DNA from: Opitutales bacterium | GTDB taxonomy: Bacteria > Verrucomicrobiota > Verrucomicrobiia > Opitutales > Coraliomargaritaceae | Direction of reading: 5' to 3' | Assembly (NCBI GenBank): GCA_046540835.1 | Contig: JBKHEL010000002.1 | Span: 1,723 to 65,722 of the forward strand | Length of the DNA: 64,000 nucleotides | Shown here: piece after piece, positions 3,883 to 10,807 of the stretch | How positions within the stretch are numbered: the first letter of the stretch is position 1 | Layout: each line of letters starts with the position of its first letter | Notes under the pieces: generated by a model | Seen by the model: the letters and a program-made list of their open reading frames with translations, nothing else | What the model was told of the DNA's origin: nothing | Databases searched by the model: none | Program-made: the position numbers and the translations under genes

Positions 3883-4278
3883 ATGAAAGTTCAACGCTGT
3901 TCCCGAGCGAGCTCCCCCGGCCCGTTCAGTCTCCGGATTTTTTTCGGTTTCCTGTTGCTTGTGCTCGTTGGCCTCCCAGGTTGCGGACGGGGGGAGTTTT
4001 CCTCGCTTGAAGCCTTGCCCATCGAGAGCTACCTGCGCCGCCCGGGAGATTTTCTGGGCAACACCTATTTGCTAAAAGGAAGAATTGATTCGCAGATCAA
4101 ATGGGAGGAGGGCGTCGGGCGGATTCTAGCCGTGCGTGCCGAATTGAGCGAGGCACGGCTGCCGGTTTTCGTTCCATCCGAGGTTGAGCAAAACCTGCAC
4201 GTCGGGCAAATTTACGAAATGCGGGCCATTATACGCCAGGGAGGATTGATTTATGTGGAAGCATTGCGGAAGTTTTAG
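3883..4278 (+). CDS. Putative lipoprotein, possibly OB-fold-like
   Basis: Hydrophobic stretch ending in lipobox-like LPGC; alternative ATG at 3832 overlaps the upstream TAA; 3' end overlaps the next start. Confidence 0.7.
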
Positions 4279-6232
4279 CCTCGGGCTGTTGGTGCTCGCC
4301 CTGATTTCGGCCGGGCAGGGAGGTCCGTCCGCACAAGACGGGGTCAATCGGCCGGACCGGGCCGTTTCTCAAAACGGCGGGTCCGGCTCCTCGCAGGGGC
4401 TGTTTGAGAGTGACACCTTTCTTGAGATGGCTGACCGGGTTTTTGATCCGGAGAGTGACGCCATGGATTTTCAGAATGGGAGTTTCAACTGGAAGGGAAA
4501 GAGCTTTAACCTGACGGAGCAGCGGGCTTTTCGATCCCGTTTTGAGCGCTATCTTCTGGCTTCGCCAACTCGGGAAGAATCCCGGTATGCCGCATTGATG
4601 ACGGATATCCGTAGCCGCCTCTCTGTGGAGGAGGCCAAAACGGATGACGCGCTGCTGGATACCTGGCAGCTCCTCTTTCGTGCATCCGCATTCGAGCTGG
4701 ACGGAGGAAACAGCACGATCATCGCGAATCAGGTTTTCAACGCCTGGCGGATCCGGAAAGAGAGCCGCAGTGCCGCGCTGACACAGCGTGAACTGGAGGA
4801 CATCCGGAAGTATCAGCAGGAAGTGGTCGCCAACCGGGCTCAGATGCTGGACTACCTCGGGCGGGCCAATCGGATCCGGGGGGCGCGCTCGGGGGACGAA
4901 GAAGAAAACGGAGCGGCTTCGGAGGATGAGGAAGGCGAAAGCGATTTACCGACAGAGGCCTCCTTCCGCGCACTTGATTTGGCCGAGACCGAAGCCAAAC
5001 TGGCCGCCCTCGAAGCCGATTCGGTCAATACCGGGATACAGGCGAAACTTCAGTTCCAGAGCCAAATCGTGAGCTTTTTGATTCAGCGGCGATTTGAGCA
5101 TGCGCTGGTGCTCTCCGGTTTTTATCGATCACTTTTCAAAGGCTCGCATCAGGAACTGGAGGTGGGCCGGTCGCAACTGGAAGCGTTCCTGCCGGGGAGT
5201 GATTTGAGCTACACTGTGGACAGCATGGCCTTCATCGCCCGGGAAGCGATCAACGATGTCAACAAGGGCATCGATGCGGTGAACACTGCCTACGATGAGG
5301 GGCGGATGATGCTCGCTCTGGAGCGCCTGCAGGAGGTCTTCTTCCTCGGAGAATATATGACTGAGGTGAATCGGCTCTCGACTCGGAAGCGGCGGCATCT
5401 GCTTGAGCTCTACCGTGGCCTCATAGATGCCAGTGAATTGGCCGATGCAAAGGACTACGACAGCCTGGCAACCGTGGCCGGGAAGATCGCCGCACTTGCC
5501 CAGGATTTCCCGAAAACGCGCGTGCTCTCTGCGATTGAAACGGCCAAGAGCATGAGCGATATGGCGGTTTTTGCGGCCTCCCAATACCGCAATCTGGGGC
5601 AGATCGACCAGGCTCGCGATGAGCTCAAGCAGGCGATCCGTATTTGGCCGGGCAATCCCTCGATTCGAGACTTTCAGCAGGAGACAACGAAGATGGCGAC
5701 TGCGGGCTCCCAGGGTGTGCAGGTATTTGACGATTTGTATAACCGCAATGACCGCCGGGGGATCTACGAGCGGCGGATGGAGCTGGGCTTTGCCTTGTCC
5801 GATGATGCGCAGCGGCGGCCTTTGCTCATGGAAGTGGTTGAGGAGGTTGCGCGGATCGATCTGTTGGTGAGGCAAAGCGAGGAGCTGGTCAAGCAGGGCG
5901 AAGCATATGCGGCGTGGGAGCTCCTCTACGAAGCGGCGCAGATTGATCCCACGGACGGGCCGATGAATCAGGCCCGGGCTGAACTGGCCCCCCGGGTATC
6001 GGAGTTTGTGGCGAAGCTCGACCGGGCGGAGCGGCTGGCCAAAGAAGGGCATGCCGCCGGGGCGCTTGCGGGCTACCTTGCGGCGCAGGATGTTTATCCG
6101 GCCAGCCGGCTGTGCCGCGTGGGCATTCTCCGGGAATCGGATGCCCTGTTTGAGGGCTTGCGCCAGCCGGAAGAGGAGCTGAAAGAACCGGTCGTGAACG
6201 AAGCAAGTGAGTCTACTGCGGAGTCGCCGTAG
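4253..6232 (+). CDS. Large exported alpha-helical (TPR-like) hypothetical protein, 659 aa
   Basis: N-terminal hydrophobic signal, coiled-coil-like segment, TPR-like C-terminal helices ([15 protein letters not shown]; [15 protein letters not shown]). Confidence 0.75.
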
Positions 6233-6266: not shown

Positions 6267-6295
6267 AAAAAAAGCGCCGCTCGAAAGAGCGGCGC
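6267..6295 (-). terminator. Intrinsic terminator of glnII
   Basis: 9-bp stem gcgccgctc/gagcggcgc, 4-nt loop, A7 tract on + strand (U7 on the - strand transcript), 30 nt after the GS stop. Confidence 0.85.
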
Positions 6296-6325
6296 CTGAT
6301 GGTAGAGCGTTCTTCGAAGTTCGGC

Positions 6326-7354
6326 TTATTTGAACTCGGCTTCGACTTCGGCGACCGTCTGAAGGACGCGGGAGACGATCTTATAGGGGTCTCCCTGCGA
6401 GTTCGGGCGGCGGTCTTCGAGGTAGCCCTTGTAGGCATCGTCCTTGACGAAGCTGTGGGGCACGCGAATCGAAGCACCCCGGTCGGCCACGCCCCAGGAG
6501 AACTTGTCGATCGACTGGGTTTCGTGAAGGCCGGTGAGCCGGAGATGGTTATCCGGGCCGTAGGCTGCGATGTGCTCGTCTTTATACTTCTCGAAGGCAT
6601 CCATGAGCTTCAGGAAGTAATCCTTGCCGCCGGTTTCACGCATGAACTCGGAGGAGAAGTTGCAGTGCATGCCGGAACCGTTCCAGTCACCGCTGTAAGG
6701 TTTGCAGTGGTATTCAATGTCGACGCCATACTTCTCGCAGAGGCGCTGGAGAATGTAGCGCGCGACATGGACCTGGTCGGCAGCCTTCTTTGAGCCCTTG
6801 CCGAAGATTTGGAACTCCCACTGGCCCTTGGCCACTTCGGCGTTGATGCCTTCGTGGTTGATTCCGGCTGCGAGGCAGATATCGAGGTGCTCTTCGACGA
6901 TCTGGCGGGCGATGTCACCGACGTTTTTGTAACCGACGCCGGTGTAGTAGGGGCCCTGTGGTGCCGGGAACCCATCGTAGGAGGGCCAACCAAGCGGTGC
7001 GCCGTCCTGCATCATGAAGTATTCCTGCTCCAGGCCGACCCAGAAATCGTCGTCATCGATGATCGTCGCACGTGCATTCGATGGGTGAGGTGTGCCATCC
7101 GGCATCATGACCTCGGACATCACGATAAAGGCGTTTTTCCGCGTGATGTCCGGGTAAAGCGCAACCGGCTTGAGCATGCAGTCCGAGCTGCCGCCTTCCG
7201 CCTGTTTGGTCGAGCTGCCGTCGAAGCCCCACATCGGGCAGTCTTCGAGCGTGAACTTTTCCGGGTCACCGTTCTCGATCTTTGTTTTACCGCGGAGGTT
7301 TGGGACCGGCTCATATCCGTCGAGCCAGATGTATTCTAGTTTGATCTTAGCCAT
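6326..7354 (-). CDS. glnII: Glutamine synthetase type II
   Basis: 342 aa; KLEYIWLDG, WGFDGSSTKQA, EQEY, NAEVAKGQWEFQ, DWNGSGMHCNFS, RLTGLHET, DRGASIRVP, YLEDRRP. Confidence 0.95.
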   Translation of the reverse strand: MAKIKLEYIWLDGYEPVPNLRGKTKIENGDPEKFTLEDCPMWGFDGSSTKQAEGGSSDCMLKPVALYPDITRKNAFIVMSEVMMPDGTPHPSNARATIIDDDDFWVGLEQEYFMMQDGAPLGWPSYDGFPAPQGPYYTGVGYKNVGDIARQIVEEHLDICLAAGINHEGINAEVAKGQWEFQIFGKGSKKAADQVHVARYILQRLCEKYGVDIEYHCKPYSGDWNGSGMHCNFSSEFMRETGGKDYFLKLMDAFEKYKDEHIAAYGPDNHLRLTGLHETQSIDKFSWGVADRGASIRVPHSFVKDDAYKGYLEDRRPNSQGDPYKIVSRVLQTVAEVEAEFK

Positions 7355-7448
7355 AGTAACTGTGCTTTATCAGGGAGTTTTGTATTTTTGTTAAAACCTC
7401 GGGACGTGCATTTTTTGTGGCACGGGATCCGTTGGTCAGGAGGAAGGC

Positions 7449-7464
7449 AGCAGAATGTGTGCCA
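7449..7464 (-). promoter_or_regulatory. Sigma-54 (-24/-12) promoter for glnII
   Basis: - strand TGGCACACATTCTGCT: GG and GC at canonical 12-nt spacing, about 95 nt upstream of the ATG; consistent with a nitrogen-assimilation gene. Confidence 0.75.
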
Positions 7465-7612
7465 CGAAAATGAGTGCAAGTGTATTTAACCAAAAATTAT
7501 ATCTGGGACGGTTGGATGGGATCCGGGGGAGAAGTTGATTTGCCGTGTTGCCTGTCATGGAAGTGCGCTGCATGCTTGCCATCCCCGGCAAAACTGGCAG
7601 TCATGCACTGGT

Positions 7613-8065
7613 ATGCAAGAGGCAAAAAACACAGGCCGGGCGACCGTCCACATCGGCTACGATGGGCGGGTGCACAAGACCTTCAAAGGCCCTCAGGCGC
7701 GGGAGCGCTATGAAAACGAGGTTCGGGTTCTTGAGTTTCTGGAGCAGCACAACTGTCGCTTTGTCCCGAGAATTCTGGAGAAGGACGATGCGGCGCTCTA
7801 TCTCGTCACGTCGAATTGCGGTGCGCGGGTGGAGCGCATGAGTGAGGGCAAGAAAGAGCAGATCTTCGCCGAACTGGAGCAATACGGCGTGCGTCACGAC
7901 GATGCGGAGGTCCGCAACATCACATACAGCCAGCAGCTGGGGCGTTTTTGCGTGATCGACTTTGAGTTTGCGACCATTCTGGTGCCCGGCTATCCGCCGG
8001 CACCCGAAATGAAGTCGGTGGCAAACCGTGCGGCCTGGGCCGAGCAGGAGGGCGCAGATGAGTGA
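7613..8065 (+). CDS. Minimal protein-kinase-like fold protein (~150 aa)
   Basis: Beta3 Lys (VHKTF), alphaC Glu (YENEVRVL), catalytic loop HDDAEVRN (HxDxxxxN), metal loop VIDFE; no large C-lobe. Confidence 0.72.
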   Translation: MQEAKNTGRATVHIGYDGRVHKTFKGPQARERYENEVRVLEFLEQHNCRFVPRILEKDDAALYLVTSNCGARVERMSEGKKEQIFAELEQYGVRHDDAEVRNITYSQQLGRFCVIDFEFATILVPGYPPAPEMKSVANRAAWAEQEGADE

Positions 8066-8918
8066 AGCCGAAGCGACGACAAAGGGGCCGTCGATCCGCT
8101 GGTCCGGGCTGACGGATGTGGGGCGCTTTCGCAAGGAGAACCAGGATGCCTTCCTGGCGCTATCGCTGGATGGTGAAGGCGTCTACCGGCTCGGTAAATA
8201 CGGCGAAGCCGGTCTGGCGAATGCGGACTACATATTTGCGGTCAGCGACGGCATGGGCGGGGCCAACGCAGGTGATTTTGCGAGCCGCGTGGCGGTGGAT
8301 CAGATCACGCGGCTTTTCCCGGCGAGCTTTCGTTCCGGGGCCGGAGGGCTGCAAGTGGGCTTTCAGGATTTGCTGACGGAGGTCTTCGAGTTCATTCACG
8401 AGGAGCTGCTTGAGATGGGCCGTTGCTATGAGGAGCTCAGCGGGATGGGCGCGACGCTGAGCTTGTGCTGGGTGCGGCCCGAGTGGCTCTACTTCGCTCA
8501 CATTGGCGACAGCCGGATCTACCACCTCCCGGCTGCCGGAGGCATCAAACAGGTCAGTGAAGACCACACCCATGTCGGGTGGTTGCAGCGCAAGGGGAAG
8601 CTAAGCGAGATACAGGCGCGAAGTCACCCCGGGCGGAACGGGCTACAGCAGGTGCTCGGCGGGAAAAACCAGCATTTGAACCCTCAGTTTGGGGCGATTG
8701 GCTACGAGCCCGGAGATCAATTTCTAGTCTGCTCGGATGGTCTGGTTGAGGGGCTCTTTAACAGCGGGATGGAGCGTTTGATACGAAATCCCGGTCCGAA
8801 TGACCGGGGCAACTCGGCCGAAAGGCTGGTGGCGGAGGCCGTGCGGACCGATGGGAAGGACAACACGACGGCCCTGGTGTTTCAGGTGTTTAGTCCTACA
8901 GAAAAGGGATGTAGCTGA
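8058..8918 (+). CDS. PP2C/PPM-family Ser/Thr phosphatase
   Basis: TDVGRFRKENQDAF, AVSDGMGG, HIGDSRIY, LVCSDGL, GKDNTT; start overlaps the kinase stop by 8 nt. Confidence 0.92.
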   Translation: MSEAEATTKGPSIRWSGLTDVGRFRKENQDAFLALSLDGEGVYRLGKYGEAGLANADYIFAVSDGMGGANAGDFASRVAVDQITRLFPASFRSGAGGLQVGFQDLLTEVFEFIHEELLEMGRCYEELSGMGATLSLCWVRPEWLYFAHIGDSRIYHLPAAGGIKQVSEDHTHVGWLQRKGKLSEIQARSHPGRNGLQQVLGGKNQHLNPQFGAIGYEPGDQFLVCSDGLVEGLFNSGMERLIRNPGPNDRGNSAERLVAEAVRTDGKDNTTALVFQVFSPTEKGCS

Positions 8919-9060
8919 GCGGGTTTGAGCTCCGCCGTTTTTCGATGGTCACGCCTTCTGGGGTCGTCTTGGTCGTGGAGCAGCCGACCGTGAGCAGCAG
9001 GCTGCCGATCAGGGCCAGAATAAGGGTGCGGTTGCGGCGGGTTGGTTTGGTTTTATGCAT
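8896..9060 (-). CDS. Small lipoprotein, 54 aa
   Basis: [27 protein letters not shown]: basic N-region, hydrophobic core, lipobox VGC; ATG overlaps the stop of the upstream ABC gene (ATGCATAA). Confidence 0.7.
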
Positions 9061-10807
9061 GGTCTTGGGCGGTTTTGGATTGTTTGTCGAAAAGACTTTT
9101 GTAGAGGGCACAGCCAGCGATCAACTCTGAATGTGTGCCGGCGGCGATGATCCGCCCGGCCTCGAAGACGAAAATCCGGTCAGCGTGCTGAATGGTGCTG
9201 AAGCGGTGGGCGATGGTCAGCACGGTGCGCCCCTTGGCGAGGGCGGCCAGGGCAATTTGAATATGGTGCTCACTCTCGGCATCGAGGGCCGAAGTTGGCT
9301 CGTCGAGGATGATGACCGGTGCGTCCTTGAGAAAGGCCCGGGCGATCGAGATGCGCTGGCGTTGCCCTCCGGAGAGCCGTGATCCGCGCTCACCCACCTG
9401 AGCCGAATAGCCTCCCTCCAATTCGTGAATGAAGCGGTCCGCCTGCGCTTGACGCGCGGCCGCCTCGACCTCCGCGTCGGTGGCGTCCGGTTTGCTCAAG
9501 CGGATATTATTGGCGATGGAGTCGTCGAACAGGATAGCCTCCTGGGAGACCAGGGCGACTTGCGCGCGAAGGTCCCGCTTGCGAAGCTCCCGGACATCGA
9601 TCCCATCGAGTGTGATGCGTCCGGAGGTGGCGTCATAGAAACGGGGCACCAGATTCGCAAAAGTCGATTTACCGGCTCCGCTGGGGCCGACGAGTGCGAC
9701 CGACTGGCCCGAGGGGATGTGCACGTTGATCTCCTGCAGCACGGGGATCTTCGGATCGTAGGCGAAGGCCACCTGTTCGAAATTGATTTCACCCCGGCGC
9801 GTGGCCAGCTCCCGGGGCTCAGTCGGCTCCGGGACGCTGTCCCGCGTGTGCAGGATATATTCGAGGCGATTCAGTGAGGCCTCGGCCCGGCGCAGGACAT
9901 TCGAGACCGCACCGAGTTTTTTGACCGGTTCGTAGCACATGTAAAGTGCGGTCAGAATCGAGGCGATGACCTCCGGTTGAACTTCCTTGACCACGGCGGT
10001 GTAGATCGCGAGCGGGATGACTGTAGCGGTGACCACCTCGATGATCGGGGTGAGCGCCTTGTCGTATTTCACCGTCTTCATCTGAAAACGGAAAAATGCG
10101 CGGCAAGCATCGGCGAAGCGCTCGTTCTCGCGGGACTCGAGGTTGTAGGCGCGCACTTCGCGGGCTGCCCCCAGGTTTTCGTTCAATACGCTGTTAACGC
10201 GGCCGGCCTCCTGTTGGGCAAGCGTCGCTTTTTTCAAAATCTTTTTTCCGATCCAGCGGATTGGCAGCACACAGCAGGGCACTGAGGCGAGCGCGATCAG
10301 CATGAAAATGGCCTGCTGCGACTCAAATGAGATATAGATGAGAAAACCGATCGCGCTGAGGAGCGTGATCGGTTCTTTGATCAAGCTGTTGACCGAGCGG
10401 ATAATCGCCGACTGGAGCTGCGCGGTATCGCCGCTCACACGGCTCATCAGGTCGCCGGTTTGATTCTGCTGGAAGAAGGCCAGTGGCAGTTGTTGCAGGT
10501 GGGCAAACACTTTGAGCCGAATTTGTTCTAAAACGTGCATCCCGCAGTAGCTCATGTAGTAAGCGTTGAGGAAGCTGCCTCCCGCGCGCAGGAGGAAGAC
10601 TGCGGGGATGGAGAGAAGAATGCCTAAAAGCATCCAGCCCTCCGGCGCATTCGGTTCGGTGACCAGGGGCACCAGGACCTTGATGACGAATGGCAGACCC
10701 GCACCGGAAGCTGACGCAGCAACTGCACCAGCTAACAGGCCGATAGCAAACTTGACGCGGACCGTTTTAAGGTAGGCAAAGTAGGGCTTGAAGCGCTGGA
10801 GGAGCAT
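9053..10807 (-). CDS. MsbA-like ABC exporter (TMD + NBD)
   Basis: N-terminal TM helices, [40 protein letters not shown]; 584 aa. Confidence 0.9.

Follow-up and report, generated by a model that had tools for sequence, protein, structure and literature searches.

Can a bacterial type II glutamine synthetase (GSII) be switched by reversible protein phosphorylation? The question is raised by a locus in an Opitutales bacterium (Verrucomicrobiota; NCBI GenBank assembly GCA_046540835.1), within a 64,000-nucleotide stretch of contig JBKHEL010000002.1 (positions 1,723 to 65,722 of the forward strand; hereafter the window, with coordinates counted from its first nucleotide), in which a GSII gene (glnII) faces a gene pair encoding a very small kinase-like protein, here called the mini-kinase, and a PP2C-type Ser/Thr phosphatase. 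Ammonium enters biomass through glutamine synthetase (GS), and adenylylation of type I GS (GSI) by GlnE is textbook enzyme regulation. No action of GlnE on GSII is known, and to our knowledge no equivalent covalent control is established for bacterial GSII; plant GS, which is also of type II, is reported to be phosphorylated. A preliminary description made from the sequence alone had proposed that the kinase and phosphatase reversibly phosphorylate GSII or another target in nitrogen metabolism. The mini-kinase/PP2C module is real, widespread, and apparently undescribed, and it is very probably coupled functionally to GSII; for the narrower proposal of a dedicated reversible-phosphorylation switch for GSII, we put the chances at about even.

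Arrangement of glnII, the mini-kinase, and PP2C

The glnII gene (6326–7354, minus strand; 342 residues) is separated by a 258-bp divergent spacer (7355–7612) from the mini-kinase gene (7613–8065, plus strand; 150 residues), which runs into the PP2C gene (8058–8918, plus strand; 286 residues). The PP2C ATG lies at 8058 and the mini-kinase TGA at 8063–8065 (ATGAGTGA), an 8-nt overlap through which PP2C is predicted to be translationally coupled to the mini-kinase. All three genes, the overlap, and the extent of the divergent region agree with the preliminary description. The glnII product has both GS domains of Pfam (Gln-synt_N and Gln-synt_C), and among PDB entries 4BAX (S. coelicolor GlnII; 2e-86) matches it best; GS beta-grasp and catalytic domains, a length of ~340 residues, and solved GSII structures as nearest neighbors place it in GlnII. 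Its score against the NCBIfam GlnII profile (NF041605; 360 bits) lies below the 500-bit equivalog cut-off, which sets it apart as a distinct GSII subclade rather than the rhizobial/actinobacterial equivalog.

The mini-kinase is a predicted minimal kinase core

The mini-kinase carries the motifs VHK (K22), ENE (E36), HDDAEVRN (H95, D97, and N102), and IDFE (D116), corresponding to the beta3 Lys, the alphaC Glu, the HxD catalytic loop with its Asn, and a DFE metal loop, and ends 34 residues past the DFE. These six residues are invariant among 15 diverse homologs drawn from several families of the order and reaching down to 56% identity, with further invariant positions including K5, D17, and G18. 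The complete catalytic set of eukaryotic-type protein kinases (Lys, Glu, HxD Asp, Asn, and DFG-position Asp) is therefore present in a sequence that gives no match to the Pkinase profile (PF00069) at E ≤ 0.1. Conservation stops ~10 residues beyond the DFE, and distant homologs end at residues 126 to 132, leaving a conserved core of residues 1 to 125 that spans kinase subdomains I to VII. An AlphaFold2 (AF2) model (pLDDT 87.8; pTM 0.81) is limited to the N-lobe sheet, helices C and E, the catalytic loop, and the DFE hairpin; neither alignment nor model revealed an activation segment, an APE motif, or helices F to I (subdomains VIII–XI). The preliminary description, which saw core kinase-fold residues with essentially no substrate-binding C-lobe, is thereby borne out on both counts, the model stopping directly after the DFE hairpin. 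Judged by residues and predicted fold, the mini-kinase is a real, minimal, and catalytically complete kinase core.

The family is large and well delimited. A word-indexed search returned 5,844 homologs, and a mini-kinase profile run against 1.84 billion cluster representatives gave 476 matches (50%-identity clusters; E ≤ 1e-3), a number small enough to indicate that ordinary kinases are not drawn in by the profile. Public names for the family are inconsistent (“phosphatase”, “Bud32”, “hypothetical”). NCBI calls many members “serine/threonine protein phosphatase”, an incorrect name for the kinase gene, apparently taken over from the overlapping PP2C, and JGI labels them “Bud32” or “predicted Ser/Thr protein kinase”.

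Assignment to several known kinase families was considered and rejected. The only Pfam matches were APH (24.7 bits) and Kdo (12.7 bits). The APH/ChoK match (PF01636) barely exceeds its 23.2-bit cut-off and covers the catalytic loop region only (residues 88–149 of the 176-residue open reading frame (ORF) against profile positions 136–200 of 239), and the C-terminal subdomain with which APH/ChoK-type kinases bind small molecules is absent. Bud32/PRPK membership fails on score (NCBIfam TIGR03724, 12.5 bits against a cut-off of 125) and on context, there being no KEOPS/Kae1 association; in more than 100 loci the neighbors of the mini-kinase are PP2C and glnII. Bud32/PRPK and Rio resemble it as atypical minimal kinases with a shortened C-lobe and are among its top structural matches, but they keep C-terminal helices that the mini-kinase lacks, and no ribosome-biogenesis context is found here either. 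A sequence-profile search of the PDB gave weak matches, the best to minimal kinase domains of the NleH/OspG type (E 0.004–0.04). These type III effectors likewise lack an activation segment; by their description they are set apart as secreted enterobacterial proteins with extra N-terminal regions and more C-lobe, and there is no significant homology. The activity of OspG depends on a bound partner. The structural comparison with RIO, Bud32, and Kdo kinases that the preliminary description had called for thus upholds a likeness at the level of fold, while membership fails and the best structural match lies elsewhere, with ArkI.

In a Foldseek search of the PDB, the archaeal RNA kinase Ark1 (ArkI) ranked first (8yv4; E 3e-6; TM 0.60 on the query; 24% identity), followed by Rio2, Bud32/PRPK, and CK2. 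ArkI, an archaeal tRNA U47 2′-kinase (COG2112/AQ578; PDB 8yv4/8yv5), has an HGQ catalytic loop, a DFE, subdomains IX and XI, and a C-terminal YKR RNA-binding motif (PMC9095486), and it shares with the mini-kinase small size, a DFE replacing the DFG, and a dedicated eraser. This likeness, together with APH being the only significant Pfam match, raises the prospect that the mini-kinase phosphorylates a nucleic acid or small molecule, as an ArkI-like RNA 2′-kinase or as a kinase of a glutamine or glutamate analog or a GS inhibitor. We regard that as very improbable. The mini-kinase has HDD rather than the HGQ of ArkI and is without subdomains IX and XI and the YKR motif (PMC9095486), on which grounds ArkI membership was rejected; it likewise has no small-molecule-binding subdomain. 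The ArkI eraser is KptA, whereas the obligate partner of the mini-kinase is a PP2C-type protein phosphatase, and ArkI is linked to tRNA genes in thermophiles, whereas the hosts of the mini-kinase are mesophiles.

The module is inherited with GlnII

The preliminary description had made its proposal depend on linkage of the kinase to nitrogen genes in other genomes, and such linkage is extensive. Across 80 mini-kinase loci collected from 185,579 species genomes, glnII is the divergent neighbor in 51, distributed over Opitutales, Verrucomicrobiales, Limisphaerales, and part of Chthoniobacterales; within Opitutales it is the divergent neighbor in 24 of 25 testable loci. Gene content follows the same pattern. 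Among 41 genomes of the order, 30 encode the mini-kinase and 29 GlnII, with both present in 29 and neither in 11, the sole kinase-only genome being an 83%-complete metagenome-assembled genome (MAG). When one genome per family was taken (f2 to f17), six had both and ten neither (Fisher p = 1e-4). In a phylum-wide sample of 301 Verrucomicrobiota genomes at least 90% complete, mini-kinase and GlnII were both found in 56, GlnII alone in 6, neither in 239, and the mini-kinase alone in none, so that 56 of 56 mini-kinase genomes are among the 62 that have GlnII (raw Fisher p 2e-54, a value inflated by relatedness). Joint absences are nested within carrier groups: one genome in genus g5; genera g35, g36, and g45 in family f18; genus g56 in f14; g61 versus g64 in f23; and all sampled members of f20 and f21. 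Where the mini-kinase is unlinked from glnII, GlnII of the same subtype is encoded elsewhere in 13 of 13 genomes, those with the Pirellula fusions described below included. Taken together, these patterns make functional coupling of the module to GSII very likely.

Three loci from Chthoniobacterales/Spartobacteria MAGs (L067, L092, and L099) have as divergent neighbor a sigma-54 response regulator (REC, Sigma54_activat, and HTH_8 domains) in place of glnII. GlnII is encoded elsewhere in the genomes of L067 and L092, the two that were searched.

Hanks-type kinases beside glnII in lineages without the mini-kinase

The six GlnII-only genomes of the phylum sample come from other verrucomicrobiotal classes: one family, whose kinase homologs are named Kiritimatiellia, accounts for five, and another family for the sixth. 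All six carry a complete Hanks-type kinase (Pkinase 127–142 bits; 316–395 residues) immediately upstream of glnII and co-directional with it, and two Phycisphaerae homologs of this kinase lie directly downstream of glnII. Five further homologs at ~50% identity (one labeled Trueperaceae, four on planctomycete or unnamed contigs) had no glnII within 4 to 5 kb, indicating that the linkage of Hanks-type kinase and glnII is lineage-specific. With these genomes counted, all 62 GlnII genomes of the phylum sample have a kinase-fold partner for GlnII, usually adjacent; these partners are of two unrelated types and occur in three different gene arrangements. From gene order and similarity searches, a different type of kinase appears to have been convergently recruited beside glnII. 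The idea that the mini-kinase is a truncated copy of the glnII-side Hanks kinases was rejected, there being no detectable similarity (E 0.73 and 6.7). One of the six GlnII-only loci (L121, G201:C48), in a genome of another class of the phylum, has the order Hanks kinase, glnII, amtB, and glnK on one strand, and in one Kiritimatiellia locus an NtrC-like gene stands beside the Hanks kinase and glnII.

These observations bear on the reading that the glnII linkage is inherited synteny devoid of functional meaning and that the pair is a generic Ser/Thr signaling module. In its favor, a single phylum supplies most of the evidence, and genomes that are related cannot be counted as independent observations. 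However, of the genes around the module in the window, glnII is conserved as a neighbor elsewhere, and those for a TPR protein and an ABC exporter are not; mini-kinase and GlnII have been lost jointly in several separate lineages, with no kinase-only genome in the phylum sample; their co-occurrence holds when the genes are unlinked; and a second kinase type has come to lie beside glnII by convergence. Mere synteny is accordingly strongly disfavored, to the point of being barely credible.

The PP2C partner and kinase–PP2C fusions

The product of the gene overlapping the mini-kinase belongs to the PP2C (PPM) family by profile (PP2C_2, 59.7 bits; PP2C, 27.5 bits) and by its metal-binding and other characteristic motifs (RxxN(Q)D, DGMGG, GDSR, DG, and DN), which are invariant in the fusions; its score against the Stp1-type equivalog (173.6 bits) lies below the 230-bit cut-off. 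In 74 of the 80 loci PP2C directly follows the mini-kinase, and in a further locus it sits 2.1 kb downstream. In the order sample, the 30 of 41 genomes with an ortholog of this PP2C (at least 46% identity) are precisely those that encode the mini-kinase, and the ortholog is always adjacent to it; the other 11 have PP2C paralogs of at most 33% identity, or none. Nine loci, from one Opitutaceae genus and from Pirellula-labeled MAGs, encode kinase and phosphatase as a single ORF of 401 to 441 residues with a short variable linker, and among the best ~50 full-length cluster representatives 13 have a fused length of 381 to 420 residues.

Five Pirellula loci (L060, L065, L068, L078, and L088) have a gene for a 427-residue protein with a weak Lar_N match (lactate racemase N-terminal) that ends 4 nt before the fusion, and trigger factor is encoded further upstream of it. 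A kinase–PP2C pair 76% identical to that of the window occurs on a contig labeled as a Polaribacter sp. MAG (L036; a Bacteroidota bin), which is probably a mis-binned verrucomicrobial contig.

The pair recalls the operons of Hanks kinases with PP2C (PknB/PstP, Stk1/Stp1, and PrkC/PrpC) in its adjacent, translationally coupled genes, its Stp1-type PP2C, and the shared catalytic Lys, Glu, HxD, Asn, and metal-binding Asp of the kinase. In contrast to the Hanks kinases, the mini-kinase comprises subdomains I to VII only, in ~125 conserved residues with no activation loop, and is without transmembrane, PASTA, or other sensor domains; the gene order here is kinase then phosphatase, sometimes fused, with glnII as the constant genomic partner. 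Kinase/PP2C operons and covalent control of GS are thus already known in kind. What appears to be undescribed is the use of a ~125-residue kinase core as writer, its fusion to the eraser, and the dedication of the pair to type II GS. The preliminary description had not recognized the module as a described system, and no description of it was found in the searchable literature, which excludes subscription-only publications: the GOS protein-family paper treats PP2C and GSII separately and does not describe the module, and the microbial kinome paper does not mention glutamine.

Tight coupling and fusion to PP2C also accord with a different role, in which the mini-kinase would be an ATP-binding or ATPase regulatory subunit of the Bud32/Rio kind that gates PP2C or binds GSII, any phosphate that PP2C removes having been placed by autophosphorylation or by a separate kinase. 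ATPase activity is the main function of Bud32 and Rio, and Rio2 and Bud32/PRPK are, with ArkI, nearest in fold to the mini-kinase, which has neither activation segment nor substrate lobe. Weighing on the other side, the full phosphotransfer set is invariant, including the HxD Asp and the Asn; Prosthecobacter keeps the kinase beside glnII with no adjacent PP2C; and a complete Hanks kinase stands beside glnII in Kiritimatiellia and Phycisphaerae, which speaks for genuine protein phosphorylation as the shared feature. We consider an ATPase subunit improbable.

Proposed mechanism and the identity of the substrate

That the mini-kinase transfers phosphate, that GSII receives it, which way GS activity would change, and what signal is sensed are all matters that we infer, with GSII as the most likely substrate. 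In the mechanism that we propose, the mini-kinase would write, and PP2C would erase, a Ser/Thr phosphate, most probably on GSII itself. A kinase without a substrate-binding lobe, whether for a protein or a small molecule, probably needs a partner to present its substrate. The mini-kinase would therefore work in complex with PP2C, as the fusion in some lineages, and its substrate would be held by that partner, for which PP2C or the GSII oligomer is an obvious candidate. A sigma-54 activator of the NtrC type would turn on glnII under nitrogen limitation, and the mini-kinase and PP2C would be expressed from a promoter of their own that is not sigma-54-dependent. Phosphorylation would then provide fast post-translational on/off control of ammonium assimilation, layered on the sigma-54 control, and the module would fill for GSII the role that GlnE has for type I GS. 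The bacteria concerned are without GlnE, and in most of them GSII is the sole canonical GS. GlnE, like AceK (the isocitrate dehydrogenase kinase/phosphatase), offers a functional analogy only, as a covalent writer and eraser acting on a central enzyme; in fold and chemistry both are unrelated to the mini-kinase and PP2C. The genome of the window encodes no GlnE, the sole match being a cross-match inside glnD.

Several points weigh against a GSII switch. Genomic coupling does not single out the substrate of the kinase, and GSII could be its activator or sensor rather than its target. No clade-specific surface Ser or Thr was found among 85 GSII sequences of the PVC group (Planctomycetota–Verrucomicrobiota superphylum); S227 is the one Ser/Thr that all of these share and that two reference GSII sequences lack, but it belongs to the NG(S/A)GMH loop of the active site, where GSI also has Ser, making it a weak phospho-acceptor lead. 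The best structural match of the mini-kinase is an RNA kinase (ArkI), and the small atypical kinases Bud32 and Rio are mainly ATPases. The module is not beside glnII in Pirellula MAGs and some Chthoniobacterales, and a few Prosthecobacter loci have, as mentioned, a mini-kinase with no adjacent PP2C. Finally, an AF2 model of a natural fusion, built from a nine-sequence alignment, is too poor to show a domain interface (pLDDT 68; pTM 0.58).

The first of these points can be developed into an alternative of its own, a nitrogen-status device in which GSII (e.g., in its feedback-inhibited form) docks on and activates the kinase, as the host partner does for OspG, the substrate being another protein such as PII, the sigma-54 activator, GOGAT, or a transporter, with PP2C resetting the system. 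Such a device would explain co-inheritance with GlnII equally well. Minimal kinases of known structure need a partner, and the NleH/OspG profile matches of the mini-kinase fit this behavior. As candidate substrates, the PII of the same genome has both Ser49 and Tyr51 (T-loop YRGSEYTVDF), and a sigma-54 response regulator is the divergent neighbor in some Chthoniobacterales, just as the NtrC-like gene stands beside the Hanks kinase and glnII in one Kiritimatiellia locus. On the other hand, PII, GlnD, and RpoN persist in genomes that have lost the kinase (e.g., G026), implying that none of them is an obligate partner; no second conserved neighbor was seen across lineages; and GlnD is present in the genome of the window, so PII already has a modifier. 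We judge GSII as activator to be unlikely, if less so than the alternatives weighed in the preceding sections. A kinase dedicated to PII was considered separately, by analogy with phosphorylation of cyanobacterial PII on Ser49 and its PP2C, PphA, which likewise places a PP2C in nitrogen control; it was rejected, with PII and GlnD present in kinase-free genomes and the module here following GlnII rather than PII.

A stronger version of the proposed GSII switch may be stated as a tentative possibility, one that we think somewhat doubtful as a whole: no protein kinase domain smaller than the ~125-residue core would be known to be catalytically competent, and the core would be active only when docked on or fused to PP2C; kinase and phosphatase together would form a bifunctional GSII kinase/phosphatase, the long-missing equivalent of GlnE for GSII; and Kiritimatiellia and Phycisphaerae would have reached the same solution by means of a Hanks kinase. 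If the module phosphorylates GSII, Verrucomicrobiota and Planctomycetota that are abundant in the sea and in soil would control a central enzyme by a mechanism new to regulation, in parallel to the phosphorylation reported for plant GS. The mini-kinases would also be a new family of minimal kinases, with which to probe how much of the kinase fold catalysis requires.

The glnII promoter, leader, and divergent spacer

The clean −24/−12 promoter that the preliminary description assigned to glnII is present as TGGCACACATTCTGC (7450–7464, minus strand), 95 nt upstream of the glnII ATG. The element differs from TGGCAC-N5-TTGC by one mismatch (14 of 15 positions), and only two such matches occur in the window. 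It is kept in 72 of 73 related divergent loci, 64 to 117 nt upstream of the glnII ATG, and faces glnII only, matches in the direction of the kinase (6 of 73) being at chance level. The genome of the window encodes rpoN (RpoN, 196.7 bits). The element is therefore classed as a sigma-54-dependent promoter, the predicted promoter of glnII. Scanning with the sigma-70 consensus revealed none for the kinase operon.

Further upstream, a CTTGC box (7476–7480, minus strand), a candidate activator or bending site, lies 11 nt from the −24 element, and a GGCAA(G) box (7539–7543, minus strand), a candidate enhancer half-site, forms its inverted partner ~60 nt beyond. In 37 of 72 loci, where shuffled sequences would give 0.7, a CTTGC stands 5 to 25 nt upstream of the −24 element, preceded in relatives by an A-tract, and GCAAG occurs 45 to 100 nt upstream in 43 of 72 against 3.1 expected; both counts come from related loci and are hence not independent. 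These inverted half-sites, which overlap the region where the kinase promoter must be, may be sites for the sigma-54 activator or for bending. They are unlike the NtrC consensus, which we take to be TGCACC-N5-GGTGCA.

The 95-nt glnII leader (7355–7449, minus strand) is predicted from single-sequence folds to form a two-tier hairpin (7395–7437, minus strand), followed by an A/C-rich stretch where relatives carry a conserved CAGUCAA...CCUGACA box. The same hairpin topology is found in four diverse leaders despite sequence change, with z-scores of −1.1 to −2.3 that amount to weak evidence. RNAalifold predicted no pairs on a MAFFT alignment of 21 leaders, and Rfam gave no match in the leader or the intergenic region. 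A strong terminator-like hairpin of 11 bp (8 GC) with a T-run directly follows the glnII stop codon (6272–6297, minus strand), and glnII looks monocistronic on this arrangement. A weaker terminator-like hairpin lies past PP2C (8919–8935, plus strand), in a region whose hairpin count is not above shuffle expectation.

Flanking genes and a second GS-family gene

In the window, the locus is flanked by a gene for a 659-residue TPR-containing protein (4253–6232, plus strand) and by one for an ABC exporter with a fused transmembrane domain (9053–10807, minus strand). Elsewhere in the same genome (C3:32291–33715) there is a second GS-family gene, encoding a GlnT-like protein of 472 residues that matches TIGR03105 (“type III glutamate-ammonia ligase”) at 612.7 bits; instead of being a GS proper, it may act as a gamma-glutamyl-amine synthetase. 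Only some relatives have this gene, and in many relatives GlnII is the only GS-family match.

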